Shown: positions 33,446-64,000 of the stretch, piece by piece | Layout of the letters: each line of letters opens with the position of its first letter | Numbering within the stretch: position 1 is the stretch's first letter | DNA from: a virus | Lineage: Duplodnaviria > Caudoviricetes | Direction: 5' to 3' (one strand) | Virus record (IMG/VR): IMGVR_UViG_3300002741_000002 | Span: 2,298 to 66,297 of that record | DNA: 64,000 bases | Notes under the pieces: model-generated | Seen by the model: the letters and a program-made list of their open reading frames with translations, nothing else | Told to the model about the DNA's origin: nothing | The model's database searches: none | Translations under genes and position numbers: made by a program

Positions 33446-34399
33446 CTAGTGCCATGCGGCGTCGGCAGCTTCGATGTGCGTGCCGAGGTCGCGCATCAGG
33501 CTACCCAGGAGCGTAATGGCCTGACGAGGCTCCATGGCATTTTTCCGCAGCGCCTCTCCCACGCCTGCCAGCGCATGGGCGGTATCGCCGATACGCAGGG
33601 CGATGTCGCTGCACTTATCGGCCAGCTCATGCCGGTTTTGAGAGAAGACGATATCGGGTGTGGCGCTGACGGGGCCGGTGAGGCGCAGCGGCGTTGCATC
33701 CGCCCTATGCTGGCGGCGGCCATCGTCGCGGAAGACCCAGCACTTCGGGATGCGCCGGCCACGGGAAAACATATCCTCGCGACCGATGAAGGGGTATTGC
33801 AGCGAGGTTTTGAGCAGGCGACTTAGCTTGGAACGTTCGGCGATGGGAAGACCACGTCGCCACGCGGCAAGGATCAGGGTCGTCAGGTGGATCGCGATCA
33901 ATCCCTGGTTGTCGGAATAGTTCACGCGCTCCCCGCGTTCGATGAGTTCCTCGTAGGTGTCCCAGAACTGGGCGACGATCGGGTGCTCGTCCGCGCGGAT
34001 GGGGGAGGGCGGCTGGCCCGTGACCAGGGCATCAAACGCGCGGATCACGGCCAGGTGGAATTTCGGACTGACCCACATGGCATAGGCATAGACCAGTTCC
34101 TTGGTGACATAGGTGCCGGGGGAGGCACCGCCATGAACCAAGGCCACCGGAGCAAACGCCATTTCTGGCGTTTGCTCAGCGACCAAGGCTTGAAAGCCTT
34201 CGGTGCGGGTATAGCGGTTCGGACTGTGGCGCGCTTCGCCACCTGCGACACGATGCAAGTCATTGAGGCAGAAGCGACCGGCGCTATCGCGGCGGATCGT
34301 GGTCTTAAGGATGGTGAGTTCCTGCAAGGGTGTCCTCCATACGGGATAAAGAGCCAGTAAGCCGAAATGACGCCAAGGATGGTCCCGAGGGGAGACCAT
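33446..34399 (-). CDS. KilA-N domain DNA-binding protein
   Basis: IRRDSAGRFCLNDLHR...GTYVTKELVYAYAMWVSPKFHLAVIRAFD; true start uncertain. Confidence 0.82.
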   Translation of the reverse strand: MVSPRDHPWRHFGLLALYPVWRTPLQELTILKTTIRRDSAGRFCLNDLHRVAGGEARHSPNRYTRTEGFQALVAEQTPEMAFAPVALVHGGASPGTYVTKELVYAYAMWVSPKFHLAVIRAFDALVTGQPPSPIRADEHPIVAQFWDTYEELIERGERVNYSDNQGLIAIHLTTLILAAWRRGLPIAERSKLSRLLKTSLQYPFIGREDMFSRGRRIPKCWVFRDDGRRQHRADATPLRLTGPVSATPDIVFSQNRHELADKCSDIALRIGDTAHALAGVGEALRKNAMEPRQAITLLGSLMRDLGTHIEAADAAWH

Positions 34400-37459: not shown

Positions 37460-37522
37460 GTGTGGGTAAAAGTGTGGGTAAAAGGCGCTTACCCACAGAG
37501 GTGGCGTGTCTTTTACCCACAG
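37460..37522. repeat. Integrase arm-type sites GTGTGGGTAAAA (tandem pair plus inverted TTACCCACAG copies)
   Basis: The same GTGGGTAAAA pair recurs at 51422-51446 at the other end of the element. Confidence 0.7.
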
Positions 37523-38753
37523 CGTGAGGTGCGGCGTGCTGACGGACAAGGCAATCAAGGCGCTTCGACCGAAGGACAAGCCTTACCGAGTAGCCGATGG
37601 CGACAGCCTCTTCATCCTGGTGCAGCCCACGGGGGCGAAGCACTGGGTCTATCGTTTCCGCTTCGCCGGCAAGGAGACCACGCTGTCATTTGGTCTCTAC
37701 GGGGAGATCTCCGCGACGGAAGCTCGCAGACGACATAGAGAGGCGCGGCTTGCTGTCCAGTCGGGGCGTAATCCTGCCGCCGATCGCCAAGCTGCAAAGG
37801 TGCGTTCGCGCTTGGAGGCGGCCAATAGTTTCGAAGCGATAGCCAACGAATGGTTGGAGGGACGTCGGCGCACACTGGCACCCACGACCTTCGAGAAGGC
37901 GGCTCGGAATTTCCGCGTGCTTGTCTACCCATGGTTAGGGAGGTTGCCCATCGCGAGCATCGAACCACCTGACGTGCTGGCCTGTCTGCGGCGTATCGAG
38001 GCCGGTGGTCACCATGAGACCGCGCACCGTATGAAGCAGCGCATCTCCCAGGTGTACCGGTATGCCATCGCTCATGGCTTGGCCCGCGTGAACCCCTCGG
38101 CGGAGCTTAGCGATGCGCTGCACCCCATTGCCTCCAAGAGCAGGGCGGCCATCACCGATCCCGCAGAGGTTGGTGGCCTTCTCCGCGCGATCGAGACGTT
38201 CCATGGGCAGTTCGCTACTGCGTGCGCCTTGAAGCTGGCGCCGCTGGTGTTCGTGCGGCCGGGTGAGCTGCGGAAAGCGGAATGGTCCGAATTCGACCTG
38301 GACGCCGCTCAATGGCGCATCCCTGCCGAGAAGATGAAGATGCGGGAGGAGCACATCGTTCCCCTGTCGACGCAAGCGGTCCATATTCTTCGCGAGTTGC
38401 ATCCGCTAACCGGGGCGGGGCGATACCTCTTCCCTGGCGCCCGCGCGCCAACGCGCCCCATGAGCGAGAACACCATCAATGCGGCCTTGCGCCGGCTGGG
38501 CTACGACGGCGACACCATGTGCGGTCATGGCTTCCGCGCCATGGCGTCCACCAGGCTTAATGAGATGGGTTGGTCGCCAGACGTCATCGAACGCCAGCTC
38601 GCCCATGCGGAGAGGAATAAGATTCGCGCCGCCTACAACCGCGCCCAATATCTGGCTGAGCGCAAAAAGATGATGCAGGCGTGGGCCGATTATCTGGACT
38701 CACTCAGGGCTGGCGGCAATGTGGTCGCGATCCACAAGAAGAAGGCCGGATAA
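37506..38753 (+). CDS. int: P4-like tyrosine integrase
   Basis: LTDKAIKAL...YRVADGDSL...WVYRFRFAGKE arm domain; VRPGELR; HGFRAMAST; QLAH...AYNRAQYL. Confidence 0.95.
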   Translation: MSFTHSVRCGVLTDKAIKALRPKDKPYRVADGDSLFILVQPTGAKHWVYRFRFAGKETTLSFGLYGEISATEARRRHREARLAVQSGRNPAADRQAAKVRSRLEAANSFEAIANEWLEGRRRTLAPTTFEKAARNFRVLVYPWLGRLPIASIEPPDVLACLRRIEAGGHHETAHRMKQRISQVYRYAIAHGLARVNPSAELSDALHPIASKSRAAITDPAEVGGLLRAIETFHGQFATACALKLAPLVFVRPGELRKAEWSEFDLDAAQWRIPAEKMKMREEHIVPLSTQAVHILRELHPLTGAGRYLFPGARAPTRPMSENTINAALRRLGYDGDTMCGHGFRAMASTRLNEMGWSPDVIERQLAHAERNKIRAAYNRAQYLAERKKMMQAWADYLDSLRAGGNVVAIHKKKAG

Positions 38754-46506: not shown

Positions 46507-47640
46507 ATGAATGCAAAGATAGTTCGATCACTTCTTGCTATGTGCATGCTGATGCCAGTGTTGGTATGGGCACAGCAGTATCCCACTCCCACCTTCAACA
46601 GCCTGACGTTGCAGAATCCATTGACTGTGGCAAATGGTGGAACTGGCGCCACGGCGTCCACTGGTAGCGGCTCCGTGGTGCTAGCCACCTCTCCATCATT
46701 GGTAACCCCTGCACTTGGCACTCCGTCTTCCGCCGTGCTGACGAATGCAACCGGACTCCCTCTTTCAACGGGTATTACGGGCACTCTTCCAGTCGGAAAT
46801 GGCGGAACGGGTTCCACGACGAGCACGGGGTCCGGTTCTGTTGTGTTGTCAAATTCCCCTACGCTTGTTACTCCAGCGTTGGGAACGCCCGCATCCGTAA
46901 CACTCACCAATGCAACAGGCCTTCCGCTCACTACAGGCGTAACCGGAACGCTCCCTGCGGCAAATGGCGGCACAGGCGTTACGACAAGCACCGGTTCGGG
47001 TTCGGTGGTGTTATCGACTTCCCCCACATTGACGACGCCGAATCTCGGCACGCCTTCTGCGGTAACGTTGACTAATGCCACTGGACTGCCTATTTCAGGC
47101 ATTTCCGGCCTGGGTAGTTCCGTGGGGCAGGCTTTGGCATGGCCCATTACAGGTGTCGTCACATCCAGTGCAGCGCTTGTGGGTGCTGTCAATGCGACCA
47201 TTACCACTCCCACGATTTTGACGCCAACGATTCAAGGCATTACTAGCGGCTCCAATGCAGGGGCTGGAAATGTTGGCGAATTTATTTCTGCAACCGCCAG
47301 CTCCTTTTCACTAACGACCTCTACGCCAGCCAATGCCACCTCTATTTCTCTCACGGCAGGCGATTGGGATGTATCGGGCGGGTTCACCATTACGAACACA
47401 ACCAGCAATATGAACAACGGGGTCTGTGGCTGGAGCACAACGTCTGCCACGTTCGGCCCCATGGGAACCTATGCACAAATAGGCGGCTCATCATTGGCGC
47501 TTAGCACGCTTTCAAATGGCATACCTGGCGCACGGTTGAATGTCACGAGCACCACCACGGTTTACATGGTGTGCGAAGCCATCTTCAGCGGTGGCCTTAC
47601 GAGCATGAGCGGCATCATCCAAGCACGGAGGATGCGCTAA
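46507..47640 (+). CDS. Signal-peptide-bearing tail-fibre-like protein with three 55-aa GGTG repeats
   Basis: [26 protein letters not shown]; repeats start near 46621, 46786, 46951. Confidence 0.7.
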
Positions 47641-48572
47641 TGCTGAACTTCATCTATGCCGATAACGTCAATACGACGCTGGCCTCTCCACTTTCCAGTT
47701 CTGCCACGTCACTTACTCTGGCGAGTTCTGCCAATTTGCCCACATCCATTCCAGCGGGAATGGCGCTCGTGATCACTTTGAATGATCAGGCGACCCGGCA
47801 GAACTTCGAGATCATCTATGCCACATCGATCAGCGGCGCAACGCTGAGTGGCTTGCAGCGCGGACAAGAAAACACATCTGCACAAAATTGGCTTGTCGGC
47901 GACTTTGCTTGGAATGGCATCACGGCAGGACAGATGCGAGGGCTTTCTTCGGGACGACTGCTTAGCGGGCCTACTGTGCTCACTGCTGCGTCAGGTACTT
48001 TTACACCCAATCCAGCCGCAACTTTGACCTATGTCAAAGGATGCAGTGGCGGTGGCGCCGGCGGTGGTGCGGTCGCCACTGGCAGCGGCCAAGTATGTAT
48101 CGGTAGCGGAGGCAATGCTGGCGCCTATTGCGAATTCTTCATAGCCGGCCCAATCAGCGGCACGGTGTCCTATACCTGCGGGCAGGGCGGCACCGGTGTA
48201 GTTGGTGCCACAGGCAATGCTGGCGGCAATTCGACCTTCGGCACTTATGCAACATGCCCCGGTGGACTTGGTGGTCTTGTATCACCGGCAGCAGCGCCGC
48301 CGTTCTTCGAAACAGGCAATTCGAATGGAAGTGCTCCATCTCTGTCAGGAGCCGCTCCCGTCTTGTTATTGCCTTCGCCATCAGGAACGGCGGGCCTAGC
48401 CTTTTCCCCGACATCCGTAAGTGGCGGTCGAGGAAACAACAATCCTCTTGGTGTAGCGCCCGGCATAGGTTACGGAACGGGAGGCAATGGTGCGGCGAGC
48501 TTTCCATCCAGTCCTGCGCAAGCCGGAACGAACGGTGAGCCTGGCGCATGGATCGTCTACGAATACGCATAA
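47640..48572 (+). CDS. Gly-rich tail-fibre-like protein
   Basis: FIYADNVNTTLAS...EIIYATSISG...RGQENT N-terminus; GGGGAGG, GGNAGAY, GYGTGGNG, GAWIVYEYA. Confidence 0.65.
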   Translation: MLNFIYADNVNTTLASPLSSSATSLTLASSANLPTSIPAGMALVITLNDQATRQNFEIIYATSISGATLSGLQRGQENTSAQNWLVGDFAWNGITAGQMRGLSSGRLLSGPTVLTAASGTFTPNPAATLTYVKGCSGGGAGGGAVATGSGQVCIGSGGNAGAYCEFFIAGPISGTVSYTCGQGGTGVVGATGNAGGNSTFGTYATCPGGLGGLVSPAAAPPFFETGNSNGSAPSLSGAAPVLLLPSPSGTAGLAFSPTSVSGGRGNNNPLGVAPGIGYGTGGNGAASFPSSPAQAGTNGEPGAWIVYEYA

Positions 48573-51586: not shown

Positions 51587-52771
51587 TTAGTCGGTATCAG
51601 GTACTTCTCCGGCAGGCTCGACGAGGGGCACTTCATGGTCGTAACGATGGACCATGCGTCGCTCTATGTGACCACTAGCCTGCTGCTTTTTGTCAGGAGT
51701 GCCTGCTGTATCAGTGATCCCGCGATGCTTTAGGCCATGTAGGCCGAAGCGCTCTGCATCAGTGATGAGTTTGGCCTCCATCGCGATTTCAATGCCGCGT
51801 GCCCATGCGCTCTTGAGCGCTTCCTTCGAAACACGTGCGCCATCTTCGGCGACGATCAACGGCCGGTCTTTTGCACGAAGCGGCACTGGTCGCCGCCTCT
51901 TTGCCCATATCGCGTTTCGTCTCTGCACAAGAAAATCCCATGCCTCCTGTAGGGCTGGAATCCAGCGCGTGACGTTGTCACGGCTTCCTTTAACGCGATC
52001 GACGTATATACCTTCCGGCAACGCATCAGCATCCGAAAGCTTACGTACTTCAACATTACGCATGCGACAGCGATAAGCAATTTCCGCCACTGCCCACAAG
52101 TAGGGCGACAGTGACCCCTTACGTCGACTGGGAAGGTTTCCACGGCGGCGCCAAAGCGCGATGACTGCGCGCATAGTAATTCGCTCTGGCATGCGAGGGT
52201 CGGCGCGCTCGACAGCAGCCTCGACCCCCAATGCTGGATTCTCGCTGCTATAGCCGCGATTGATACCCCACTCGAACGTGCGAGACAGGTAGCGCAGAAC
52301 GTGATTTGCTTTGGCCGGTGTCGGTTTTGGATAACTACCGTCACCTGCGCGTTCGCCTCTTGCCAGTTCGTCAATAAGTTTTTGCACTATGGGCCGGTTG
52401 ATACGCTTGCGATTGAGCTTTGCAAAGGGAACACCCAGCTTCGTCTGGAATTTTTGAAGTACGCCCCGGCAATATCGATAATCATCCTGAGTTGCTTTCG
52501 TCAGATTTCTGAACTTGTCGGATTGCTCAAATTGCTCAAGCATGTAGTCAAGCATTTGTTCATCCAGTCCCGACAGCTCATCAGCGATGCGGAACAAGTC
52601 AGATAGAAGCGCTGTCTTGTCGGCAACTTTTTTGCTCCGCGGCTTCCCATCAACGTAAATGGTGTACCAAAAATGGCGTTGACGGTGCCAATAGATTCCG
52701 TTGGGAATCTTCGCCTGATCGATATGTTGTGGGATGGTGGCGTCGTATTTGCGCTTCCTGCCGCGAGTCAT
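51587..52771 (-). CDS. int: Tyrosine integrase
   Basis: MTRGRKRK...; CRMRNVE, HGLKH, SGH...Y catalytic residues. Confidence 0.88.
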   Translation of the reverse strand: MTRGRKRKYDATIPQHIDQAKIPNGIYWHRQRHFWYTIYVDGKPRSKKVADKTALLSDLFRIADELSGLDEQMLDYMLEQFEQSDKFRNLTKATQDDYRYCRGVLQKFQTKLGVPFAKLNRKRINRPIVQKLIDELARGERAGDGSYPKPTPAKANHVLRYLSRTFEWGINRGYSSENPALGVEAAVERADPRMPERITMRAVIALWRRRGNLPSRRKGSLSPYLWAVAEIAYRCRMRNVEVRKLSDADALPEGIYVDRVKGSRDNVTRWIPALQEAWDFLVQRRNAIWAKRRRPVPLRAKDRPLIVAEDGARVSKEALKSAWARGIEIAMEAKLITDAERFGLHGLKHRGITDTAGTPDKKQQASGHIERRMVHRYDHEVPLVEPAGEVPDTD

Positions 52772-52980
52772 AGGATGTCCGGGCTGTACGCTACGTCGTT
52801 GCCAGCTTCGGCGATGCCCAGAGAAGCGTTTACGGCTTGAATCGTCGTCCATGGGCCATTGGCACCGTCCTTGGTGGGGATGCCCTGCCGGCGCGCCCAC
52901 CTGCGCACAGCAGCTTCCGTGCGTTTGCCCGAAAGTGTGCGTAGTAACTCAGCATCAACGATGTGATGGTTCTTGTTCAT
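52768..52980 (-). CDS. Excisionase-like (DUF4224-like) protein
   Basis: LRTLSGKRTEAAVRRW...GPWTT; overlaps the int start. Confidence 0.65.
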   Translation of the reverse strand: MNKNHHIVDAELLRTLSGKRTEAAVRRWARRQGIPTKDGANGPWTTIQAVNASLGIAEAGNDVAYSPDIL

Positions 52981-53016
52981 GAGGCCTTGTTCTCCCTGTT
53001 TTGCTTTATTAGTTTT

Positions 53017-55731
53017 TTACTTGTGAGCCGATGCAGTCGGCTGTTCATTCGGGCCGCGCTGGAAAACCCAGCATTTGACGGTACGGCCACGGGGTTCATC
53101 GGTGTTGTCGTGAAGCCAAATGGCGCTGTTCACAGCCTTCATGTCCACGAATTTGCGCAAGCGCGAGGTGCGCAAGTACTTCTTGAGATCAGACAGCGAC
53201 GGCACTTCGAGACGGTGGTGTGCAGCGATCTGCTCGAAGTGATTGAGGTTGACCGCGATCTCGCGTGGGTTGCGGCTGTGGTTGAGTGACGGTGCGGCGG
53301 CGTTCCAGGTGTCGAGGTAATCGAACCGCTCCCAGAAAATCTGCACTATCTTGTGGTCGCTGCTGATGGATTCCTGACGCTCGACGGCTATGCCTTGCAC
53401 TTCCTGCATTACGGCTTCTTTCTGTTCGTCGGTGAGCGTGACCACATGCGATAGCGCATCGAACACGGCGAGCAATTGGCCGTGGTTCTTCGCGATACGG
53501 GTGGTCTTGATGTCAGGATGGTCCAACAAGGCGTGTTCGTGCCGGGGAGCATTCGCCAGGATGGTTTCCATCACCTTGGCTTCCGCACGCGTGGCCAGCA
53601 GCAGGAAGTGACTCAGCGCATCGACCGGCATTTGCTCCAGCTTCAACGCCGCCGCGCGCGTCTGCGCGGTGTGCGCCGAGCGATCCACCGTGATGTGGCA
53701 GATGCGCTGCATGATCGCCTCGCTGGCCTCCACCTTGGCGTTCTGCGAGATCACTACGGTGGCGCGAAACGGCGGCTCGCGCGTTTCGTTGCCGGAGTTC
53801 TTGACGCCCGTGGCGCGCACGCTACGACCGTTGTAGGCGGTCTTGAGTTCGTCCCAATCGAAGCGCTTCTTGGCGTCGTCGTCGCGGTCGCTCTCGATCA
53901 ACACCACCGGCAGGTTCGACACCTGCGCGAAGTTACGCGCCCGCGCCGCCGGCGTGGACTTGGAGGGGTCGAAGCCTTCGTAGTCGCGGCGTCCAAACAG
54001 CTTCCACATGAATTCGATCAGCGTGGACTTGCCCGCGCCGGCTTCACCCACCAGTTCGAGGAAGGGATAGCTCTTCTGCACCTGGCGGATTTGCTCGGCA
54101 AAGAGGCTGCCGAACCAAAACGTCAGGGCCACGAGCCCCTTCGCGCCGAAGCACTGCCACACCAGGTCCAGCCACTCGGCGCGGTACTCGCGCCGATCGC
54201 GGTTGAAGGTCAGGTGTGGCGACTGGCTGAGCGTCTTGAGGTTGAGCTTGCCCAGCTCGAAGTAATCCTCGTCGTTAAGCGTATGCACGACGCCATCCTT
54301 GATGGCGATATCGCCCATGACATAGACGCCGTGCTCCTTGCTGTAGCCGACGAAATCGATCGTCTCGACCGTTTTGATGTTGAAGAGCTGCCGCTGGATG
54401 ATGCGGTCGAGCTGCTGACTGGTGCCGGTGAAGACGGCACCGGGAGCGATGCTCAGCAATCGCTTCTTGAACTCGCTCGCACTGGCCAGGCTGCTGCCGG
54501 CGAAGGTGTTCTTCACCGAACCGCCGCCGTGCGGAAAGCTCACCCGGTAGTAGTACCAGGACTCGTCGGTGACGGTGTTGGCCTGGTAGTACAGCGGCTG
54601 CGGGTTGCAGTTGGCGATCTCCACGTTTTCACACGCTTCCACCAGCGCCTGATCGCGGCGTTCCTGCTCGTCTTGGTCGGGGTCTTTTTCCTCGAGCTGC
54701 TGCATGGCCTTGTCCAGCGCCCGGATATCCAGGTCGAACCAGTACAGGCGATCGGCGAAGTCATAGAAGAAGGTCGCCATGCCGGTGCGGCGGTAGATCA
54801 GCCGTGCCTTGTCGGCGTGGTTGCGCGCAATCAGCAGCGAACCCTGGTAGAGGTATTCGTCGATGTCGTTCGGGCTGAGTTTGTCGGCCAGATGCAGGTC
54901 GTTCCAGTCCTGCTTGGCTTTACCCGTTTGTACGATGGTGGCTGCTTCGCACTTCCAGCCTTCCTTGCGCGCCCGCTTCACCCAGCGCTGGGTGTAATCC
55001 CGGCCGGCGGCGTCGCCATCCAACGCCCACACCAACGTGGGCAGGTTATGGGCGCGGTGCGCGCGCAACCGTGCCAGGAACGCGGCCGGGTAGTTGTTGC
55101 AGCTCATGGCCGATACTGCATCGATGCCGTGATGGCCCACCGCGACGGCATCGAAAATCCCCTCCACCAGCCACAGCCGATCGACCGTGGCCAGCTTCTC
55201 GGGCGGGAGCGTGGGTGGCACCCACGCCTCGCCCGCGTAGGGCTTGCCCGGCGCGAAGCGCGCTTTCATCTTGCCAAAGCGGTGGGCGCGATCGATCAGG
55301 CGTTCCCAGTAGCCGCCGCCAGGCAGCGCAAAGCGGACGGTGGCGGAGGTTGCGCCGCTCTCCAGGTCTTTGAACCACTCCTGGGTGTACGTGCCTTGCA
55401 CGCGCGCCAGGTTGAAGCCGCGCGAATTCTTCAGGTATGCATCGGCCGCCGCGTGTGGCGCGTCTTCGGTCTTCTTGTAGCGCTCGGACCAATCCTCGAA
55501 CAGGTCAGGGAAGAGGTCTTTCACCGATGCTTCGTAGCCGCAGTTTTTCAGACGCCCGCAGCGGATCACCCACGGGGCGCCGGCATTGGCATACAGCTCC
55601 GGCTTGCCGCAATCCGGACACTTGCCACCGCGCAGATAATCTTTTTTGGCTTTGAAGCCGAACTGATGAACCAACTCGCGGGTGATATCCGCGAGCAACT
55701 CTGTGCTCATGGCGTAACGCGGTGCGCTCAT
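53017..55731 (-). CDS. Zn-finger/TOPRIM primase-helicase replication protein (P4 alpha-like)
   Basis: CPDCG...CGRLKNCG; VEGIFDA; ALDGD; QDWND; GEAGAGKS Walker A. Confidence 0.9.
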   Translation of the reverse strand: MSAPRYAMSTELLADITRELVHQFGFKAKKDYLRGGKCPDCGKPELYANAGAPWVIRCGRLKNCGYEASVKDLFPDLFEDWSERYKKTEDAPHAAADAYLKNSRGFNLARVQGTYTQEWFKDLESGATSATVRFALPGGGYWERLIDRAHRFGKMKARFAPGKPYAGEAWVPPTLPPEKLATVDRLWLVEGIFDAVAVGHHGIDAVSAMSCNNYPAAFLARLRAHRAHNLPTLVWALDGDAAGRDYTQRWVKRARKEGWKCEAATIVQTGKAKQDWNDLHLADKLSPNDIDEYLYQGSLLIARNHADKARLIYRRTGMATFFYDFADRLYWFDLDIRALDKAMQQLEEKDPDQDEQERRDQALVEACENVEIANCNPQPLYYQANTVTDESWYYYRVSFPHGGGSVKNTFAGSSLASASEFKKRLLSIAPGAVFTGTSQQLDRIIQRQLFNIKTVETIDFVGYSKEHGVYVMGDIAIKDGVVHTLNDEDYFELGKLNLKTLSQSPHLTFNRDRREYRAEWLDLVWQCFGAKGLVALTFWFGSLFAEQIRQVQKSYPFLELVGEAGAGKSTLIEFMWKLFGRRDYEGFDPSKSTPAARARNFAQVSNLPVVLIESDRDDDAKKRFDWDELKTAYNGRSVRATGVKNSGNETREPPFRATVVISQNAKVEASEAIMQRICHITVDRSAHTAQTRAAALKLEQMPVDALSHFLLLATRAEAKVMETILANAPRHEHALLDHPDIKTTRIAKNHGQLLAVFDALSHVVTLTDEQKEAVMQEVQGIAVERQESISSDHKIVQIFWERFDYLDTWNAAAPSLNHSRNPREIAVNLNHFEQIAAHHRLEVPSLSDLKKYLRTSRLRKFVDMKAVNSAIWLHDNTDEPRGRTVKCWVFQRGPNEQPTASAHK

Positions 55732-56024
55732 GCGTCGCTACCGTCCGTGTGGCCGGGGGCGGGGTGCGCATCCGTATGCTTGCTGAGCCACATCGCGGCA
55801 TGAGGGCCGCAGGCAGCGCCCATGCGACGCATCACGTCGCAACTGGTGCCGAGGTAGGTCCGTCCCTCCACGTCGCGATCGTGCCAGTCGTCAGCCTCGT
55901 CGCTTGCCGCAGCCGGTGCGCAGTCCGGCGGCAAAGTGCATAGGTGGACGCGACCCTCCAACTCATCGGGCATCGCGTGAAACACGCAATCAAGGCAGGT
56001 CTTTGTGCGCGGTGTGGTTGTCAT
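55728..56024 (-). CDS. Hypothetical Cys-rich protein
   Basis: CLDCVF...C...CDVMRRMGAACG. Confidence 0.55.
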   Translation of the reverse strand: MTTTPRTKTCLDCVFHAMPDELEGRVHLCTLPPDCAPAAASDEADDWHDRDVEGRTYLGTSCDVMRRMGAACGPHAAMWLSKHTDAHPAPGHTDGSDA

Positions 56025-56102
56025 CAGGCAAGCCGGGTCCGTACCGGCTGCGCAGGTAGCCGGTGAAAAAGAAGGGAAGGGGTTTAGGGCGAGGCGGTTA
56101 GA

Positions 56103-56498
56103 TCAGCCCGCACGTCGTCCGCATTGCTGCGTGATGCGTGCGGCGTCGAGGTTGCCTTCGCTGTGCATCCGGGCCATTTGCAGCACGTCGCTGGCCGTGA
56201 GGGCATAGGCATGGCCGGTGGTCGGATCGACCACGCGCACCACATACGACGTGCTGTGGCTGATGTCGAAGTACGCCGGCACGTGTTTGGCTTGCAGATC
56301 CGCCAGGGCGTGCATGGTGTAGTGCTGCGCCAGGTTCTCGGCAATGCCAGCGGTGGCCATCAGATGCGCGCAGCAGCGCTTGACGAGCTGTTCGCTATCC
56401 AGGTGTTCGGCCTGGTGCGCGACGATGAATCGCGTGGCGCTGTGGATCAGCAGGGCGGCATGGGCGGAATCGTGAGGAAGCGAGCGAGAGAACGACAT
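56103..56498 (-). CDS. Hypothetical early-region protein
   Basis: ORF in the early operon. Confidence 0.55.
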   Translation of the reverse strand: MSFSRSLPHDSAHAALLIHSATRFIVAHQAEHLDSEQLVKRCCAHLMATAGIAENLAQHYTMHALADLQAKHVPAYFDISHSTSYVVRVVDPTTGHAYALTASDVLQMARMHSEGNLDAARITQQCGRRAG

Positions 56499-56512
56499 GG
56501 GAACCCCTGTAG

Positions 56513-56848
56513 TCAGTTGAGCACCATGGGTGCGTAAGAGGAACCTGCCGCACCCGTGGGCGGGGGCGCAGGGGTTTCAGTGGTGGCGGGGCGCGTGGCC
56601 GCGGGCACGAGGATGTCGTTGGCGCGCCGCTCCACGATAGGCAGCGAGACCTGTGCATTCGGGATCAGGCTCGGCACCAGGGTGCGAACGATGCCGAGCT
56701 GCGCGACACAGCGGTGGCCGCAATCGACGTTCATGCAGTCGAAATAGATGTCACGCACCAAGGGGCTCAACTGCCGGGAGGTGATCGTGCGCATGCGCGA
56801 TTGGCAGTGCGGGCAGGCGATCGTGTTACGGGGCGCTGTCATGTCCAT
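56513..56848 (-). CDS. ogr: Ogr/Delta-like late transcription activator
   Basis: CPHC...SRQLS...YFDCMNVDCGH. Confidence 0.9.
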   Translation of the reverse strand: MDMTAPRNTIACPHCQSRMRTITSRQLSPLVRDIYFDCMNVDCGHRCVAQLGIVRTLVPSLIPNAQVSLPIVERRANDILVPAATRPATTETPAPPPTGAAGSSYAPMVLN

Positions 56849-56874
56849 TTAGTCCTCATACACCGCTTCTACGC

Positions 56875-57096
56875 TTACCTAGTTTTAAGACCGGTGGCGG
56901 TCCTGCGTTGGTGACGATGGGCCAGCCCTTCGAGGTACACCTCAAGCACGTAGGCCGCATCGGTCTTGTCCTCCGCCGCATCCAGCACCTTGCACCGGGC
57001 CAGGTCCGCCGGGTCGAGCCCGATGGGGACGCGCTTTCGTTTCGTCGTACTGCGCGGCGCATAAATGCGCCGGCGACCGCCAGGAGAGTTCTTCAT
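56875..57096 (-). CDS. Cro/Cox-like small regulator
   Basis: Divergent from cI; basic N-terminus. Confidence 0.55.
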   Translation of the reverse strand: MKNSPGGRRRIYAPRSTTKRKRVPIGLDPADLARCKVLDAAEDKTDAAYVLEVYLEGLAHRHQRRTATGLKTR

Positions 57097-57186
57097 AGTG
57101 ATGGGGTAGGATGCCGAGGTGTTACACAAGGCGACGATAGTACACATTTTGTAGTAACGCAAGAATTTGCGTCAAAGGATTACACA

Positions 57187-57615
57187 GTGCGTAGTGAGCA
57201 ACCCCAACTGGACGCCGATGCGATCATCCTGCGCATGCGCCAAGTGTTCGGCGTGCGGTATGAGACAGAGCTGGCTACCGCGCTCGGGTTATCGAAAGCG
57301 GCGCCGAGCAACTGGCGCCAACGCAACAGTCCGCCGTACGAGCTTTGTGTGCAAATTGCGCGCGAAAAAGGGATATCTCTCGACTGGCTGATCTTTGGGA
57401 TCGGCGACATGCACCTAGGTGGGCGGGTGGAAGCACCGCAAAACCCCGAGCAGATGGAAAGCGTGCCTGCGAACAGTCCGGCGGCTGAGCGCGTTTCTCA
57501 GTTTGTGTACTGGTGGCATCTCAATCGCACACAGGATGAGATGATCTGGCTGGAACAGCAATTCAAGCGCGCGGTGCCGGAATACGGGGAGTGGTTAGCT
57601 GCCGGCGCTTACTAG
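57187..57615 (+). CDS. cI: CI-like repressor (P2/186-type HTH)
   Basis: ELATALGLSKAAPSNWRQRNSPPY...ISLDWLIFG. Confidence 0.85.
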   Translation: MRSEQPQLDADAIILRMRQVFGVRYETELATALGLSKAAPSNWRQRNSPPYELCVQIAREKGISLDWLIFGIGDMHLGGRVEAPQNPEQMESVPANSPAAERVSQFVYWWHLNRTQDEMIWLEQQFKRAVPEYGEWLAAGAY

Positions 57616-57856
57616 CAACTGACAGTGTAGAGCTGCGCTATATAGTTGGGCGCATGGTCATCGACCCTGTCATGTGGGACTCGTTCCACCGTCTGCGGAC
57701 AGTCTGTCGTGTTTGTGGCTTTGCGGCTTCGCTCGCAAGAATCTGAAAGCGCATCAATTCACTTGACGGCCCGATGTAGTTGATGTCGTAATTGCGACGA
57801 CGTGAATGACTGAATGATCATTCACTGAGGGCCACCCACTGTCGAAGGAGTTTGAC

Positions 57857-58390
57857 ATGGTTAAAAGGATTGGCGTCATTGCTGCAGGAATAGTTGCGCT
57901 GTTGGCTGGAAATCCAGCGACTGCTAGCACTTGTCAAAGCAAGTACTCGTCTGAATTACATGCTCTTAAAGCACAAGATGATCGGTACTACGCTGCAGTA
58001 GACCATCGCGTTGTAACCACACAAGCTGGCTTACAGCAGTTTGCACGCAACGAACGTGTCGCGGTGATTGAAGAACAGCAAGGTCTCTGCACATTCGACG
58101 ACTATCTAATGGCTGCCTCAATCCGTGGGCGTGGTCTAACGTTAAAAGATCAAATAGCAGCTGTGAGACTGGCCTCCGTGGCTCAGTCGATGAACCCCAG
58201 TTCTGTACAGGCCCGGCAAATCTTCGCCCACGCAATAGATCAGCTAACTTTTAGAGCCCAAGGAAAGCAGTTATATGGGACGCTAAAAGAAAGCGAAACT
58301 GACGGCAAGATCTCTCCTGTACCAGTGATAGATGGCGCGGTGTCCGCTCAGGACAGGAAGATAGCCGAGCAGCAGACAACCGGTAGCTAA
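57857..58390 (+). CDS. Exported DUF6624-like protein
   Basis: Signal peptide; QDDRY...AIDQL...GKQLYGT. Confidence 0.55.
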   Translation: MVKRIGVIAAGIVALLAGNPATASTCQSKYSSELHALKAQDDRYYAAVDHRVVTTQAGLQQFARNERVAVIEEQQGLCTFDDYLMAASIRGRGLTLKDQIAAVRLASVAQSMNPSSVQARQIFAHAIDQLTFRAQGKQLYGTLKESETDGKISPVPVIDGAVSAQDRKIAEQQTTGS

Positions 58391-58558
58391 AAGAAAAAAC
58401 GCGCAGAAAGCGAGAATGCCCTTCCTCTGCGCATTGGGGAATCTGATTTGAATCCTCATGAGCATGAGCTCATGTCTTCGAATGCCCGGTGCATGTGCCA
58501 GGTCCTATGGTCATGTCACTGAGCCTGGAAAACTCTTACGACTGATCGAGGGAACGCA

Positions 58559-59569
58559 ATGTACTCCGAAGAAACAGTTGCCAATGCACTTACCCCAAAT
58601 GTTCTAGAGCTGATTATCCTTCCGACGGAAAAATGCAACTTTCGATGCACGTATTGCTACGAAGATTTCAAGATAGGGCGCATGTCCGAGCGCACAGTCG
58701 GCGCAATTAAAAAGTTACTAGAACATCGGATTCCAAAAATAAAAAAGCTTCACTTCTCTTGGTTTGGAGGTGAGCCGCTTCTGGCTAAAGACGTGTGCAT
58801 TGAGCTATCTAAATTCGCCAAGCATCTTTGCGAAATAAACCACGTTAGTTTCAGTGGTGGATTTACCACAAACGGCTATCTTCTGACTCCTGAGCTTGCG
58901 CGTCAGATGTTTGATCTTAGCCAGCGCAATTTTCAGATTACGCTTGATGGCGATGAAGAATGGCACAACAAAACGCGGGTTCAGCCAAACAGGAAGCCGA
59001 CGTTTCAGAGGATTTGGGACAACATATTGATGTTGAAAAATATGTCGGATCCGTTCCATGTGCAATTAAGACTGCACGTGCATGCAGATAATATCGAGTC
59101 AGTAAAAAGGCTATACGATCGACTTAACGCCGAAATACTGATTGATAAGCGATTCTCAGTCTATTTTCATCGAATCAGTGACCTCAATCCGCGTGAGGCA
59201 GTTAAGGAAAACCTACTAAACGACGAGGACTATGAGGACGCGTTGACTTATATAAGCGGGGTTGACCGCGAAATAAACGGACATACGAAATCTGAAATAC
59301 ATCTTAATGATTACATATGTTACGCAGCTAAACCTAACTCTCTGTTGATTCGTGCCAATGGGTCACTGGGTAAATGCACGGTGGCGCTCGACGATGATCG
59401 AAACAGTATTGGCAGAATACTTGAGGACGGCACCTTAGAAATCTCTAATCCAAAGCTACAGCAGTGGTTTCTTGGCTACTCGGATTTGTCTAAAGATACA
59501 CTTGTATGTCCGTTGGCGACGTTGCCTCCTAAGATAACCGAAAAGACTATCTCGATTAAAGCGATTTGA
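58559..59569 (+). CDS. Radical SAM enzyme with short auxiliary-cluster (Twitch/SPASM-like) domain: putative peptide maturase
   Basis: CNFRCTYC, WFGGEPLL, TTNGY, ITLDG; C-terminal YICY...GKC...VCP. Confidence 0.9.
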   Translation: MYSEETVANALTPNVLELIILPTEKCNFRCTYCYEDFKIGRMSERTVGAIKKLLEHRIPKIKKLHFSWFGGEPLLAKDVCIELSKFAKHLCEINHVSFSGGFTTNGYLLTPELARQMFDLSQRNFQITLDGDEEWHNKTRVQPNRKPTFQRIWDNILMLKNMSDPFHVQLRLHVHADNIESVKRLYDRLNAEILIDKRFSVYFHRISDLNPREAVKENLLNDEDYEDALTYISGVDREINGHTKSEIHLNDYICYAAKPNSLLIRANGSLGKCTVALDDDRNSIGRILEDGTLEISNPKLQQWFLGYSDLSKDTLVCPLATLPPKITEKTISIKAI

Positions 59570-59650
59570 TGATGTAGGGAGGCGGTTTTGACACTGCCCT
59601 TCTGGAGCGTCAACTCCGCTATTTTGTGAAAAGCAACCAAGGAGGTAATC

Positions 59651-59932
59651 GTGTTACCGATAATAGATCCATCTGTAATCATGGTTGATCATCATGGGGC
59701 CGTCCAAATCAACGAGGCGGCCTTGGCAAAATTTCTTTCTTCGAAAGTCATCCAACATGATGATCTTGCCGTAAATGCTGGCTGTGGCGGGTCAAATGGC
59801 AGTTGTGGAAACTCGGGCTGCTCAGGAACCAACGGTGGCTGCGCGAATGCGGGATGTAAAAAGGTCGGGCCAACAGCTCCTGGCCGGACAGAGACAATTG
59901 GAATTGATTCTGTTGCGCAAATTGTGGCCTAA
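59651..59932 (+). CDS. Putative RiPP precursor A (five NxxC motifs)
   Basis: AAGGAGG RBS; NAGC-GGS-NGSC-G-NSGC-SGT-NGGC-A-NAGC. Confidence 0.75.
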   Translation: MLPIIDPSVIMVDHHGAVQINEAALAKFLSSKVIQHDDLAVNAGCGGSNGSCGNSGCSGTNGGCANAGCKKVGPTAPGRTETIGIDSVAQIVA

Positions 59933-59952
59933 CTTCTAGGACTTGGTTTAGC

Positions 59953-60234
59953 ATGTATTTTGTAGGATTAACCTCAGACTTGACTAAGCCAATGGAATTC
60001 CGGCCCGTTACGGGCCGGAATTTCTCGGCGCCCGTAACGCTGGCTGATGGAAAGAGTGTTCGAATCTTTATAAATGCACAAGCGGACAAGAGGCAGCCAA
60101 TGGAGATTGTTGTTGTTGACGAAAATGAAAATTGGTTAGCACGAGCGCATGTACTAAACAATACTACGCAAATTTTTAGTCGAATTGGTTTATTAGTTAA
60201 CGTTACAACCTTGCCTGATGGTGAAAGTAATTAG
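59953..60234 (+). CDS. Small beta-rich hypothetical protein between the two precursors
   Basis: 93-aa ORF in operon. Confidence 0.6.
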   Translation: MYFVGLTSDLTKPMEFRPVTGRNFSAPVTLADGKSVRIFINAQADKRQPMEIVVVDENENWLARAHVLNNTTQIFSRIGLLVNVTTLPDGESN

Positions 60235-60251
60235 ACGTTAGAGGTCGTGAG

Positions 60252-60485
60252 ATGCCTGATACGAAGATTGATCCAAGCGAGATTGTTGTCATGCCAGATG
60301 GAGGCATTTTTTATAATGGCAGGGATATCCGTAATACATTGAAGTCCACTGCGGATACAGAACTTTCCGGGGTGAACGTTGCTTGTATAAATTCGTCATC
60401 ATGTAAAACAATAAATATTCAATGCGACAATCTGGACCTGTCTGAAGGGGGTGTCAATGTGGGCCTGTGTAGAAATGGCGTTTAA
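60252..60485 (+). CDS. Putative RiPP precursor B (NxxC/NxxxC motifs)
   Basis: Leader shared with A (IDPSxIxVxxxG); NVAC, NSSSC, NIQC, NVGLC. Confidence 0.7.
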   Translation: MPDTKIDPSEIVVMPDGGIFYNGRDIRNTLKSTADTELSGVNVACINSSSCKTINIQCDNLDLSEGGVNVGLCRNGV

Positions 60486-60531
60486 GATTGAAGGGTTGGA
60501 TAATTATTTTTCTAGCACCAATTTCTACTAA

Positions 60532-61860
60532 ATGGCTATGCAAACATTTGTGTATGGTATTGAGAACGGTGTTAGAAGTTTGACACGATCTCGCTTATTG
60601 TCGTGTCAGATCATTTTGGCAATGGCGTTCGGTATTGCCGCTTTTAGTTCAGCATGGGGAGCGTTGTTGTCGTTAACAGGCGATCCTCTTAAAGACGTCG
60701 GACGTGAAACCTATCATCCTCAGGTCGATCCGAGACCTTTGGATATAAAAGATGCGTCTGGAAGTCCTCCTGATGATCTAACTCTCCGAGATGCGCGAGC
60801 CATTTTTCAATTTTCGCCGTCTGGCCGTCGGGCTATGTCTTCACTTAACTGGTTGCCTATGGAGCCAGTAGAAGGGCAGCTTCATGAAAAACGGATGACA
60901 ATGGTGTTTGCGAGAGGCGCCACTTCTGATTTTTTTAAGTTGTTCCGGGCTCCTTTTGCATATGGCTCGGCGTGGTCGTCATCGTCGGATAATGATGGCT
61001 CCGAGGTGGTTGTGATATCGAAAAAGCTTAATCTCCAATTATTCGGCGGAAAGAATAGTATCGGAAATCATCTCCAGCTTGCCGGTAAGCTTTTTACGAT
61101 TATCGGCATATTAAATGATTGGGAAATTGTTCCACGTGTTTATGACTTAAATGATGGCGCATACGCCCAGGCGGAAGACGTGTTCATGCCATTCGAAACA
61201 TGGCTGGACTTGCCGCAGGATTATGGATACGGCCCAATGAAGTGCTGGGCAAATGAACAGGCGGATATGGATCACAACCCGCGCAGCGAAACCTGTACCT
61301 GGGTTCAGTTATGGGTGCGGCTTTTTCCAAGTGAGGTTGCGCAATACGTAGATTTGCTAAAGGGTTATTCGGAACAACAAAGGGCATTAGGGCGTTTTCA
61401 GCGTAGTCCAAATGTCAAATTAAAAAACGCAGATGAGTGGCTTGTCTATAAAAAAGTTGTGCCGGATGCTATAAAAATTCAGCTCTGGGTAGCATTTGGG
61501 TTGTTAGCTGTGTGTCTGGTGAGCACTTCGGCACTTTTGGGGGTCAAATTTAGGGGTGACTTTTCGGAACTTGGAATTCGCCGGGCTTTAGGAGCATCGA
61601 AGCGTCAAGTTTTCCTCGAGCTTCTCAGTCAAGGAATAGTAATTGGCATGCTGGGTGGTATAGGCGGAATAGGGCTGGGGCTCGCCGTAGTGCGTATTAT
61701 GAAGAGTTCCGGCCAGGACTACGCTCAGTTTCTGGGCGTATCTTTCAGCAGTGCATTGTTCTCGTTGATTGTAGCTCTGTGTAGCGCGCTCGTCGCTGCA
61801 GTTGTGCCTGCCTATGTCGCCGCAAACGAATCTCCTTATAAGCAGATGGTTGGTCGATGA
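60532..61860 (+). CDS. MacB/FtsX-family ABC permease
   Basis: N-terminal TM, VVISKKL...LFG, ELGIRRALGAS, C-terminal TMs. Confidence 0.9.
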   Translation: MAMQTFVYGIENGVRSLTRSRLLSCQIILAMAFGIAAFSSAWGALLSLTGDPLKDVGRETYHPQVDPRPLDIKDASGSPPDDLTLRDARAIFQFSPSGRRAMSSLNWLPMEPVEGQLHEKRMTMVFARGATSDFFKLFRAPFAYGSAWSSSSDNDGSEVVVISKKLNLQLFGGKNSIGNHLQLAGKLFTIIGILNDWEIVPRVYDLNDGAYAQAEDVFMPFETWLDLPQDYGYGPMKCWANEQADMDHNPRSETCTWVQLWVRLFPSEVAQYVDLLKGYSEQQRALGRFQRSPNVKLKNADEWLVYKKVVPDAIKIQLWVAFGLLAVCLVSTSALLGVKFRGDFSELGIRRALGASKRQVFLELLSQGIVIGMLGGIGGIGLGLAVVRIMKSSGQDYAQFLGVSFSSALFSLIVALCSALVAAVVPAYVAANESPYKQMVGR

Positions 61861-63056
61861 TGTGGAATCAAATTCCCGTAATTATTCGCTCATTCAGGAA
61901 GCACAAAGGCACAGTAGTTTTGCTTATGAGTATGGTCGCGCTCACTGTCGCGGTTTTTGCAAATGCGGCTTCGGTCATAGGCGAAGCTGTTCGCAAATCA
62001 CAGATTTCAACAGGAATTGATGAGGCGAATGTGGCGGTCATTCAAGATATCGCAGTGGTAAATAAGGGCGGGAGTAAATCGACGCAGGACAAGTTGGCTC
62101 GAATTCGAGCGTTGCCCGGGGTTGTTGATGTCGCGCTAGGGGCGACGCCACTGATGAATAGCTCGACGATGTATGTAAGCAGAGCGATGGGTGAAAGCGC
62201 GGCGGTGGAGGTCAAATATTTTGAGGGTAGCCAGGGCTATCAAAACGCCTTGGGAGTAAAAGTATCTAATGGTGATAATTTGCGGGATGCTTCTTCTCCA
62301 AATTTTGGTATCGATACCGCGATGACACCGTGCGTTATAACGGCGGCTTTGGCGGACCGCTTATTTGGCCAAGAAGCTTCAATCGGCAAGACCATCTACG
62401 CGGGCAATCTAAGTTTTCAGGTTGTTGGGATTGTTCCAACGTTGCGTGAGAGTTTGTCGCTATCTGAAGTTGACAACTACGCGATGCTCGTTCAACACAA
62501 GCTTGGACAAGAAGAGCTTGGTGGCCTATTCGTGATTCGCTCCAGCGATGGGCAAGTCCAGAAGGTACTCAACAAAGCATTGAGCATTTTCCGTGATCTT
62601 GATCCTTACCATGTTCAGCCTCTTGCGGAGACATTTGAGGATTTAAAGGTGGAGGCGTTGGCGCGACGCTTGGCATTGGCAAAGGTGCTCTCATTGCTTT
62701 TAATCGTATTGACGTGCGTGACTTGTTTTACAATCGGGTCTATTACCTCTCTTTGGGTCAGGCAGCGGAGAACGCAGATTGGAGTGCGGCGCGCGCTAGG
62801 TGCGACGCGCATGGATGTGCTTGCGTACTTTCTCTTTGAGAATGGGATGATTACTTCCGTTGGTGCATTTTTTGGTGTTCTGCTTGCCTTTTTGACGAGC
62901 TCGCAAATGCAGAAATACTTCGAACTCTCTGGCATTACTTGGCACTACGTTGTGTGTTCCATTCTTCTTATTGTTACGTGTAGCGGGGCGTCTGCTTTAG
63001 GGCCAGCCTGGCGCGGCTCCAGGCTTGCTCCGGCAGTCGTTTTTCGAAACATATAG
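61857..63056 (+). CDS. MacB/FtsX-family ABC permease (second)
   Basis: VITAALADRLFG, QIGVRRALGATR, PAWRGSRLAP. Confidence 0.9.
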   Translation: MMWNQIPVIIRSFRKHKGTVVLLMSMVALTVAVFANAASVIGEAVRKSQISTGIDEANVAVIQDIAVVNKGGSKSTQDKLARIRALPGVVDVALGATPLMNSSTMYVSRAMGESAAVEVKYFEGSQGYQNALGVKVSNGDNLRDASSPNFGIDTAMTPCVITAALADRLFGQEASIGKTIYAGNLSFQVVGIVPTLRESLSLSEVDNYAMLVQHKLGQEELGGLFVIRSSDGQVQKVLNKALSIFRDLDPYHVQPLAETFEDLKVEALARRLALAKVLSLLLIVLTCVTCFTIGSITSLWVRQRRTQIGVRRALGATRMDVLAYFLFENGMITSVGAFFGVLLAFLTSSQMQKYFELSGITWHYVVCSILLIVTCSGASALGPAWRGSRLAPAVVFRNI

Positions 63057-63144
63057 GGTCGAGCTTGTGTGCCAGCCCTTAAGAATGCTTCCGAAGGCAT
63101 CGCCACGACCTCGCCTATGAGGTGCCAGATTGTTTGAGAATCTA

Positions 63145-64000
63145 TCAAGTGTCGACGGTATTAGCATCATTCGCTGCGACGTAATCGCTGGCTCTACTTT
63201 TGTTTTCGAGGCTCAGTGATGTGAAATAGCCGCCATGCCCATCGAGCTGATGTTTAGCTTTGGCTACAATCCATTCGTATGAGGGCATGGGCTCAGGCCA
63301 TCCCACGAGCTTCACCGGCATTTCCGGGGTCACGTCTGGTCGTCCGATCGCAAGATCCAGCGTGAATGTCGCAGCTCCGCGCTTCACGCGTGCAAGTTCC
63401 GCTTCGGCAGCGCGCTTCGCGTCCGTTTCCGTCGGAAAATCACCTCTCAGTATCTTCACATGCCCATGCTTGCCTGCAAGTGCAAGGTGCCCGCGCGCAC
63501 TATTTACGTCATACCAGCGCGCCTGTACGCCGGTGTAGGCGCTGCGGTCGATTTCCTGGAAATGATGGCGATCACCATTCGCACGCCGGATCACCAAGGT
63601 AGGAAATTCGGCGCCATTCGCGGTTTTCGCTTCACCGATGGGCGCGAAGATCAGGCATCCGTGCTTGACGGTGGCCATCGCATCGAAGTGTTTGCCAAGC
63701 CGGCGCAGTAACGCCATGTCGCTTTCGGTTTGATCTAGCTGCGTGATGAGCTCGCTCGCCAGCTCGCTGGATACGCGCGGCCTAAGCCCATGCTCACCCG
63801 CAATCACACTGACGATGTGGCCCACGGTGGTATTGCTCCAACCGCGCTCCTTGCGCGTGGCCAAAGGACCGGCCATGCGTGCGCTGCGCCCCCGCACCGT
63901 AATGGTATCCGGCGCACCGCGGTGTTCGACCTCGTCCACGACGTAGGAGCCTTGCAAGCACATGCCCGCCGTATCAAAGCCCAGCGACACTTCGATGCTC
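63145..64000 (-). CDS. gpD: Late control protein D of prophage 2 (5' end beyond the window)
   Basis: Closely similar to the 7458-8519 protein; diverges at the C-terminus. Confidence 0.92.
   Translation of the reverse strand, partial: SIEVSLGFDTAGMCLQGSYVVDEVEHRGAPDTITVRGRSARMAGPLATRKERGWSNTTVGHIVSVIAGEHGLRPRVSSELASELITQLDQTESDMALLRRLGKHFDAMATVKHGCLIFAPIGEAKTANGAEFPTLVIRRANGDRHHFQEIDRSAYTGVQARWYDVNSARGHLALAGKHGHVKILRGDFPTETDAKRAAEAELARVKRGAATFTLDLAIGRPDVTPEMPVKLVGWPEPMPSYEWIVAKAKHQLDGHGGYFTSLSLENKSRASDYVAANDANTVDT

Follow-up and report, generated by a model that had tools for sequence, protein, structure and literature searches.

In Streptococcus orisratti, the radical S-adenosylmethionine (rSAM) enzyme NxxcB joins the sulfur of a Cys to the β-carbon of an Asn after the thiol has bound an auxiliary Fe-S cluster, and activation of the Cys thiol by an auxiliary cluster is the working model for both NxxcB and the sactisynthases (PMC9389541). 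NxxcB is a full SPASM enzyme with two auxiliary clusters, and another enzyme, QmpB, uses Asn as an α-carbon acceptor (PMC11851443). The NxxcA/NxxcB work of Caruso et al. 2019 is summarized in PMC9389541 and PMC11851443. Here we describe a seven-gene cassette that, like NxxcA/NxxcB, pairs an rSAM enzyme with a leader-bearing peptide whose core contains N-x-x-C. In contrast to NxxcA, the motif is repeated four to five times and includes an NxxxC form, and the hosts of the family are mainly Gram-negative. The cassette lies in a window of 64,000 nt (the whole stretch of DNA that was analyzed), which is part of the 66-kb IMG/VR virus record IMGVR_UViG_3300002741_000002. The original prediction, made by a model from the letters alone, had proposed an AT-rich block of seven co-oriented genes between cI and gpD that would encode a peptide made on ribosomes and modified after translation (RiPP). 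The open reading frames (ORFs) lie where it placed them, all on the plus strand, and their GC content and the flanking Pfam matches agree with it. The seven genes are as follows:

57857..58390 (+), a 177-aa exported protein whose Sec-type signal peptide ends in ATA|ST
58559..59569 (+), a putative radical SAM peptide maturase of 336 aa with a CxxxCxxC motif and three C-terminal Cys
59651..59932 (+), precursor A, 93 aa, with a GTG start after an AAGGAGG Shine-Dalgarno sequence (precursor profile E 8e-23)
59953..60234 (+), a predicted cytoplasmic all-beta protein of 93 aa that is specific to this cassette type
60252..60485 (+), precursor B, 77 aa, with a leader homologous to that of A (precursor profile E 3e-19)
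60532..61860 (+), permease 1, with a MacB periplasmic core domain (MacB_PCD) and FtsX by Pfam
61857..63056 (+), permease 2, with MacB_PCD and FtsX by Pfam, its start overlapping permease 1 by 4 nt

Ribosome-binding sites are recognizable for most of these genes. The GC content of the block is 42-50%, against 59-67% in the adjoining phage genes, and at third codon positions the values are 38-52% and 64-82%, respectively.

The two small ORFs carry the central observation. Precursor A consists of a leader with the motif I-D-P-S-x-I-x-V...G-x-V-x-I, a Gly-rich core and a 24-aa follower. The core contains five NxxC motifs in the 12-residue periodic pattern that had been described for it. Across A-type cores, four N-x-x-C units are kept while the residues between them vary, and there is no aromatic residue; Cys and Asn are therefore left as plausible partners in a cross-link. 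The core of precursor B has four Cys, two in NxxC motifs (NVAC and NIQC) and two in NxxxC motifs (NSSSC and NVGLC), with an Asn at -3 or -4 before every one of them. In the B orthologs (n = 5, 38-55% identity), N42, C45, N47, C51, N55, C58, N69, and C73, and no other positions of the core, are invariant. Judging by their shared leader, A and B are paralogs. The initial assignment of both as precursors held, since each is also recognized by a hidden Markov model that we built from small ORFs adjoining rSAM genes of the family.

With this precursor profile, the enzyme proved to be accompanied by a leader-homologous peptide at 60 of the 80 best GTDB loci, the leader having the general pattern hydrophobic-x-hydrophobic ... 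G-x-V-x-L/I ... L. To compare the motif with chance, we took 81 non-redundant cores containing 305 Cys and shuffled each core in 1000 trials. An Asn stands at -3 of 141 of the 305 core Cys (47%), whereas the shuffles gave 40±5.5 with a maximum of 57. Another 107 Cys (35%) have an Asn at -4, and for 81% an Asn is found at -2 to -4. Hence, at the level of the family, the Asn-Cys motif is far beyond chance. Far from being unlinked to NxxC peptides, a finding that would have spoken against the original prediction, homologs of the enzyme in many phyla adjoin Asn-x2-3-Cys peptides.

The family is large. A word-seeded search returned hundreds of close relatives of the enzyme, all labeled merely "radical SAM protein", and in GTDB, with one genome per species, at least 590 stretches encode a relative. 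These come from Xanthomonas, Dokdonella, Massilia, Pseudoalteromonas, Nostoc, Streptomyces, Neobacillus, Acidobacteria, Chloroflexia, Nannocystis, and others. One betaproteobacterial genome holds two paralogous enzyme-precursor pairs about 3 kb apart (L018, 3723-5357 and 7198-8850), with Cys/Asn-rich precursors of 119-125 aa and 7-10 Cys each. In Streptomyces and Kitasatospora (L052, L064, L067, and L071), the peptides upstream of the rSAM gene have two-Cys cores of the form N-[VI]-C-P-N-L-V-x-x-C-G, and this actinobacterial variant may form a single larger ring.

We next consider the enzyme. It belongs to the radical SAM superfamily by Pfam (PF04055, 68 bits against a cut-off of 29.5), and the cluster motif C26-x3-C30-x2-C33 is invariant in an alignment of 23 relatives (45-66% identity). 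The only other Cys that are invariant in these relatives are those of C254-x13-G268-x4-C273 and C317. The former matches the C-terminal Cx9-15Gx4C signature of SPASM/twitch domains, and C317 is a third putative ligand; these are the three C-terminal Cys that had been singled out before. No further Cys is conserved among the 23 relatives that could form the CxxCx5Cx3C block of a second auxiliary cluster. Nor is there an N-terminal RiPP precursor recognition element (RRE), for which there is no room because CxxxCxxC sits only 25 residues from the N-terminus. Consistent with both observations, curated maturase profiles align from about position 81 to about position 370 of 438, so that neither the RRE nor the end of SPASM is covered. 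By sequence and by model, the enzyme is thus best described as a peptide-modifying rSAM of the SPASM/twitch type with a reduced SPASM domain and no RRE.

The best NCBIfam scores went to maturases of Cys-rich peptides, namely TIGR04463 (158 bits against a cut-off of 525), Clo7bot (128 bits), and CefB (NF038107, 111 against 600), followed by PapB (NF047865, 98 against 340). The SCIFF maturase profile TIGR03974 gave 55 bits against a cut-off of 425, and the anSME profile TIGR03942 gave 67 bits. NCBIfam cut-offs were reached by none of the enzymes or precursors, either here or in five distant members of the family. Among enzymes of solved structure, the one closest in sequence is the thioether synthase CteB (82 bits, 16-20% identity). 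We therefore retain the earlier assignment as a RiPP maturase, closest to the maturases of Cys-rich peptides and to CteB. In an AlphaFold2 model of the enzyme (predicted local distance difference test score, pLDDT, of 89), residues 16-324 superpose on CteB over 290 residues with a Z score of 24.1, and the alignment extends through residue 426 of the CteB chain. The Z scores for anSME and ChlB are 23.6 and 23.4, respectively, and the rSAM epimerase EpeE also appears in the list (Z 16.6).

Because CteB, anSME, and ChlB are tied in Z, the fold does not pick the reaction. The enzyme could instead modify the Cys itself, by anSME-like formation of formylglycine or a thioaldehyde, by epimerization or by another route, and Asn would then be an element of recognition or positioning. 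The near-equal fold scores, the TIGR03942 match, and the presence of EpeE in the list are what such a reaction would lead one to expect, and a single auxiliary cluster is unusual among known thioether synthases. The cores, however, lack the C/S-x-P/A-x-R motif that anSME recognizes, and the enzyme scores higher with maturases of Cys-rich peptides and with CteB than with anSME. Furthermore, the pairing of Cys with Asn at -3 or -4 across phyla is what a donor-acceptor relationship predicts, and it matches the linkages made by NxxcB and QmpB (PMC11851443). On balance, we regard modification of the Cys alone as unlikely. Asn-Cys thioether chemistry at each motif is the reading that we consider probable, on the strength of the motif and by analogy with described enzymes.

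Several thioether systems share features with this one. NxxcB, compared by description only, has two auxiliary clusters and resides in a Gram-positive shp/rgg operon, whereas the enzyme described here has one three-Cys site and no RRE, and Pfam and NCBIfam scans found no Rgg-like gene in the cassette. PapB and QmpB resemble it in that a single rSAM forms multiple short-range thioether rings, guided by a two-residue motif that recurs along the peptide, but the PapB profile scores far below its cut-off and Cys precedes Asp in PapA, whereas Cys follows Asn here. TIGR04463, Clo7bot, and CefB, which are uncharacterized rSAM/SPASM maturases of Cys-rich peptides, provide the top curated profiles, yet the scores lie far below cut-offs of 525-600. 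CteB, the SCIFF maturase (PDB 5WGG and 5WHY), is thioether-forming and the best solved relative by both sequence and fold, but it has an N-terminal RRE and a second auxiliary cluster, and our enzyme has neither. The first auxiliary cluster of CteB has an open site that binds the substrate Cys. By analogy, the mode of action would be that of the NxxC, PapB, and CteB thioether systems. The enzyme is a member of none of these families, since the second auxiliary cluster and the RRE are absent and the curated profiles remain far below cut-off.

Taken together, these features suggest the following mechanism. The shared leader of A and B would dock on the enzyme and be read directly, as the rSAM has no RRE domain. 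The thiolate of a substrate Cys would bind the open iron of the auxiliary cluster, a site that we infer to be open because this single cluster appears to have three Cys ligands. A 5'-deoxyadenosyl radical would then abstract a hydrogen from Asn, either at Cβ as with NxxcB or at Cα as with QmpB, a choice that sequence cannot tell. A C-S bond would form once per motif to give a 4- or 5-residue ring at NxxC or NxxxC, respectively, and the finished products would carry five rings in A and four in B.

What happens to the product after that is suggested by the remaining four genes. The adjacent MacB_PCD and FtsX proteins, both above the Pfam cut-offs, look like a heterodimer of the LolCE/ADOP kind. 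Of the duplicated ADOP profile, the N-terminal half is matched by permease 1 (48% identical to its homolog in the L087 cassette, see below) and the C-terminal half by permease 2. ADOP proteins are orphan duplicated FtsX permeases with no adjacent ATPase. The two permeases differ from them in being split rather than fused, in scoring 96 and 124 bits against a cut-off of 622, and in being tied to a RiPP cassette. Permease 2 also weakly matches the DarB profile. The darobactin operon (DarA, DarBCD, and DarE) is likewise a Gram-negative rSAM RiPP operon with an FtsX/MacB-type permease, but the DarB profile gives 23.5 bits where its cut-off is 700, and in darobactin it is aromatic residues that are cross-linked, by C-C and C-O-C bonds. 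An ATPase and a membrane-fusion protein belong to the darobactin operon as well, and both are missing from the cassette.

The exported protein matched no Pfam family. It is predicted to be all-helical, with TPR/Sel1-like structural neighbors in the Atlas (TM score 0.69-0.73), and it has two conserved Cys. A word-seeded search returned one relative besides the protein itself, and the homolog in the L087/L088 cassette (39% identity to L087) is known only from comparison of the cassettes. Its model makes it a candidate periplasmic peptide-binding or immunity component. The 93-aa protein is predicted to be a seven-stranded beta-sandwich (pLDDT 91.5). Its family comprises 9 clusters among 1.84 billion representatives, and each one that we looked up lies inside a cassette of this type, always between an A-type and a B-type precursor; it is absent from most loci of the wider family. 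A feature search of the Atlas gave no usable match. Foldseek retrieved FHA domains as a weak likeness (best E 0.04, range 0.04-0.1), and the best hits in VIA-align were secretin sheets at Z 8.0-8.6, which is within the noise band of that tool. The model thus resembles, at most and weakly, an FHA-like beta-sandwich. RREs have a helix-containing winged-helix fold, and we rejected the 93-aa protein, the sole candidate for a discrete partner of this kind, as an RRE on the grounds that it is an all-beta sandwich and is absent from most family loci. In the proposed scheme, it would serve cassettes of this type as an accessory in the cytoplasm. The two permeases would form a heterodimer powered by a host-encoded ATPase; at the envelope, they and the exported helical-repeat protein would deal with the product, for export, self-protection, or both.

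The cassette is not confined to this virus record. Its gene order (the exported protein, often an extra precursor, the rSAM, one or more precursors, the 93-aa protein, a B-type precursor, and two permeases) recurs at 32-66% protein identity in independent contexts:

L087/L088, an island beside two integrases
L090, a contig with a serine recombinase, IS (insertion sequence) fragments, and RepB
L094, a contig beside ordinary metabolic genes
L095, a short contig
A further copy, on a contig with a Tn3 transposase, an integrase, and KfrA

In all of these other copies, the exported protein is followed by an additional A-type precursor gene before the rSAM. At the equivalent position (58390-58559), the prophage copy has just a 168-nt gap, from which we conclude that it has lost that gene. 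Four copies have usable flanks, and in three of these the cassette is richer in AT than the DNA around it; the exception, L090, differs little from its surroundings (GC 0.557 versus 0.586-0.601). A search of 50,697 phage records with the DNA of the cassette gave no match. Full-length members of the family occur on only about 5 others of the 2.9 million IMG/VR contigs, so carriage by a phage is the exception for the family. As far as sequence comparison goes, the cassette is mobile cargo and is not phage-specific.

Outside this cassette type, the genes around the enzyme vary. A C39-peptidase ABC (ATP-binding cassette) exporter occurs in 33 loci of the wider family, with HlyD downstream in about 20 and with GG-type leaders. 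Since exporters differ or are missing among the relatives, the conserved core is the enzyme plus its peptide, and the export/immunity module is interchangeable. In one contig (L091, 1-6673), a 65%-identical rSAM and its precursors directly follow a predicted conflict system composed of GASH, DO-GTPase1, DO-GTPase2, GAP1-N1, and a caspase (Peptidase_C14).

In the window, the cassette is flanked by genes of a temperate phage:

56908..57615 (+), a CI-type repressor (Pfam Phage_CI_repr, E 3.8e-15) of the P2-like element, directly upstream of the cassette and co-oriented with it
57619..57646 (+), a candidate sigma-70-like promoter (10/12 matches) between the repressor and the first cassette gene
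63145..63999 (-), the P2-type tail gene gpD (Pfam Phage_GPD; phrog_52 tail protein, E 1e-93), truncated where the record ends

Gene callers prefer a 142-aa form of the repressor (57187-57615), which is also the form called in identical contigs. The number of promoter-like sites in the region is not above shuffled expectation, and the site at 57619..57646 is therefore just a candidate. No terminator-like site was found in the 241-nt gap between the repressor and the first cassette gene. As the cassette is downstream of the repressor gene and co-oriented with it, its expression in the lysogen is probable. Between 56.5 and 63.5 kb, no RNA family reached the Rfam gathering threshold, and a repeat scan returned only short two-copy matches. 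The arms of a 23-nt inverted repeat (58511-58533 and 63202-63224, 87% complementary) enclose the stretch that begins just before the rSAM gene and ends in the 3' end of gpD; this repeat may be due to chance.

The element is P2-like (Peduoviridae). It has a primase, Ogr_Delta, Phage_CI_repr, and Phage_GPD, it shares with Ralstonia phage RSY1 the order gpD, cargo, regulators, primase, and integrase, and the 904-aa primase is 55% identical to that of RSY1 and also resembles those of related Peduoviridae of Pseudomonas and Stenotrophomonas. In RSY1, the order is tape measure, gpU, gpD, cargo (a methyltransferase and an ORF of unknown function), leftward regulators, early genes, primase, and integrase, and the tail protein at the gpD position is 38% identical to the gpD described here. 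Because RSY1 carries cargo at this position, we conclude that the cassette fills the cargo slot between gpD and the repressor. RSY1 ORF38 was rejected as a homolog of the CI-type repressor on sequence comparison; hence, it is the slot and not the regulator that is common to both phages. The original prediction of temperate-phage cargo in a Gram-negative host is thus supported, as are its other parts that could be checked by computation. The slot is that of a P2-like phage, and the relatives of phage and enzyme point to a proteobacterial host. The cassette is not, however, specific to phages, and this copy may belong to a remnant. The combination of cassette and phage, with identical repressor and enzyme, is present on at least 14-20 contigs from several metagenome assemblies. 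On the longest identical contig (L081, 13647-16991, corresponding to L178 from 14019 onward), what comes after gpD is not gpU and tape measure but a pair of IS3-family transposase genes plus an integrase. It is the position of this transposase and integrase directly after gpD that makes a remnant possible. The record ends at the same point as this junction, and the assembly probably broke at the IS.

A second P2-like structural module in the window is complete, with capsid, terminase, portal, and sheath. Its gpD (7458-8519, -) is 79% identical to the gpD at 63145..63999. Since there are two P2-like elements (7458-30635 and 51587-64000), the 66-kb "virus" is a mosaic or a tandem array rather than one phage. 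Beside the second gpD, an AT-richer slot equivalent to that of the rSAM cassette is filled by an RHS-repeat protein of 1761 aa (100-5385, +) with RHS_repeat, DUF6531, and a C-terminal eCIS-core-like domain, which is an antibacterial toxin or competition weapon. Integrases are found at 37506-38753 and 51587-52900, and tail-fiber genes at 46507-48572. After the portal gene, another AT-richer stretch (31693-34399, -) encodes a 513-aa protein with Schlafen/AlbA_2 and HATPase_c_4 domains as well as a KilA-N protein; these genes are candidates for further prophage cargo or defense genes. Modification of a phage fiber tip by the rSAM enzyme was rejected as a function: the precursor leader is like that of chromosomal RiPP precursors, there is no fiber domain, and the cassette recurs on non-phage elements.

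This setting bears on what the peptides might do. Sitting co-oriented directly downstream of the repressor, as rexAB does in lambda, and in a variable cargo slot next to gpD, the cassette could be a module against other phages or for superinfection exclusion, in which peptides and membrane proteins act on incoming phages. The relative next to the GTPase/caspase conflict system and another relative that shares its contig with an MmeI-type restriction enzyme would fit such a role. In PADLOC, however, the cassette gave nothing beyond weak LolE-TM matches and a generic similarity of the rSAM to viperin models. The family is mostly chromosomal and has bacteriocin-type exporters, with few members among viral contigs, and the sister slot holds an antibacterial RHS toxin. 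We consider an anti-phage function decidedly unlikely.

A third possibility is that the peptides are metal ligands or signals for quorum sensing or phage lysogeny, and that the permeases and the periplasmic protein form a device for uptake or sensing. This would agree with cores that are rich in Cys, Asn, and Gly, with the quorum-sensing control of the streptococcal NxxC cluster (PMC9389541), with the resemblance of the periplasmic helical-repeat protein and permeases to an import or sensing set, and with a location near the lysis-lysogeny switch. But Cys consumed in thioethers cannot bind soft metals, the cassette contains no regulator, receptor kinase, or peptide-binding transcription factor, and it is also found on plasmid, transposon, and island backbones that have no repressor. 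We judge this possibility very unlikely.

In the reading that we favor, the cassette would be a lysogenic conversion module, and its product would most likely be a bacteriocin-like competition factor. This role, with immunity conferred by the permeases or the periplasmic protein, is one that we put forward tentatively and short of calling it probable. Several observations weigh against the proposal as a whole. On the side of the chemistry, CteB is tied on fold with anSME, which oxidizes Cys/Ser, and with ChlB, and the second auxiliary cluster and RRE that NxxcB, PapB, and CteB possess are absent. On the side of transport, genes for an ABC ATPase, a membrane-fusion protein, or a protease are missing from every copy of the cassette, and in the whole 66-kb record no ABC_tran match is above cut-off, the sole match being the Walker motif of the primase, below cut-off. 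Because there is no ATPase, export through MacB-type permeases, which take their substrates from the periplasm or membrane, is unexplained. Neither precursor has a signal peptide or a GG cleavage site. The nearest chromosomal relatives, in Xanthomonas and Dokdonella, consist of precursor, enzyme, and precursor only, with no transporter.

In kind, an rSAM-made thioether RiPP with an Asn-Cys motif is already known. What is new is this lineage of enzymes, the proposed ladder cores with multiple rings, the set of accessory proteins, and carriage by a prophage. In keeping with the original statement that no description of the cluster was known, neither NCBIfam nor the full-text literature, whose coverage leaves out most subscription journals, yielded a published account of the enzyme-peptide family. 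Our overall proposal, held with less than even confidence, is that the family could constitute an undescribed, phylum-spanning class of RiPPs, "ladder" peptides of 4-5 rings whose leader, of a beta-hairpin type, the minimal enzyme would read by itself. One mobile sub-lineage would have acquired the FHA-like sandwich, the helical-repeat protein, and the ATPase-less permeases, would travel on prophages, plasmids, transposons, and islands, and would serve as a lysogenic-conversion weapon with its own immunity.

If the chemistry is as proposed, it would extend Asn-Cys thioether formation beyond single streptococcal examples to a large unnamed family, present in at least 590 species genomes of Proteobacteria, Cyanobacteria, Actinobacteria, Firmicutes, Acidobacteria, and others. 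It would also mean that one rSAM enzyme with a single open-site auxiliary cluster and no RRE installs multiple rings, and an enzyme this minimal would be useful for studies of mechanism and for peptide stapling, as is the case with PapB. A modified-peptide pathway carried as prophage cargo together with an ATPase-less permease pair is, moreover, a tractable system in which to study the energy source of such permeases and the benefit that peptide natural-product genes bring to temperate phages.

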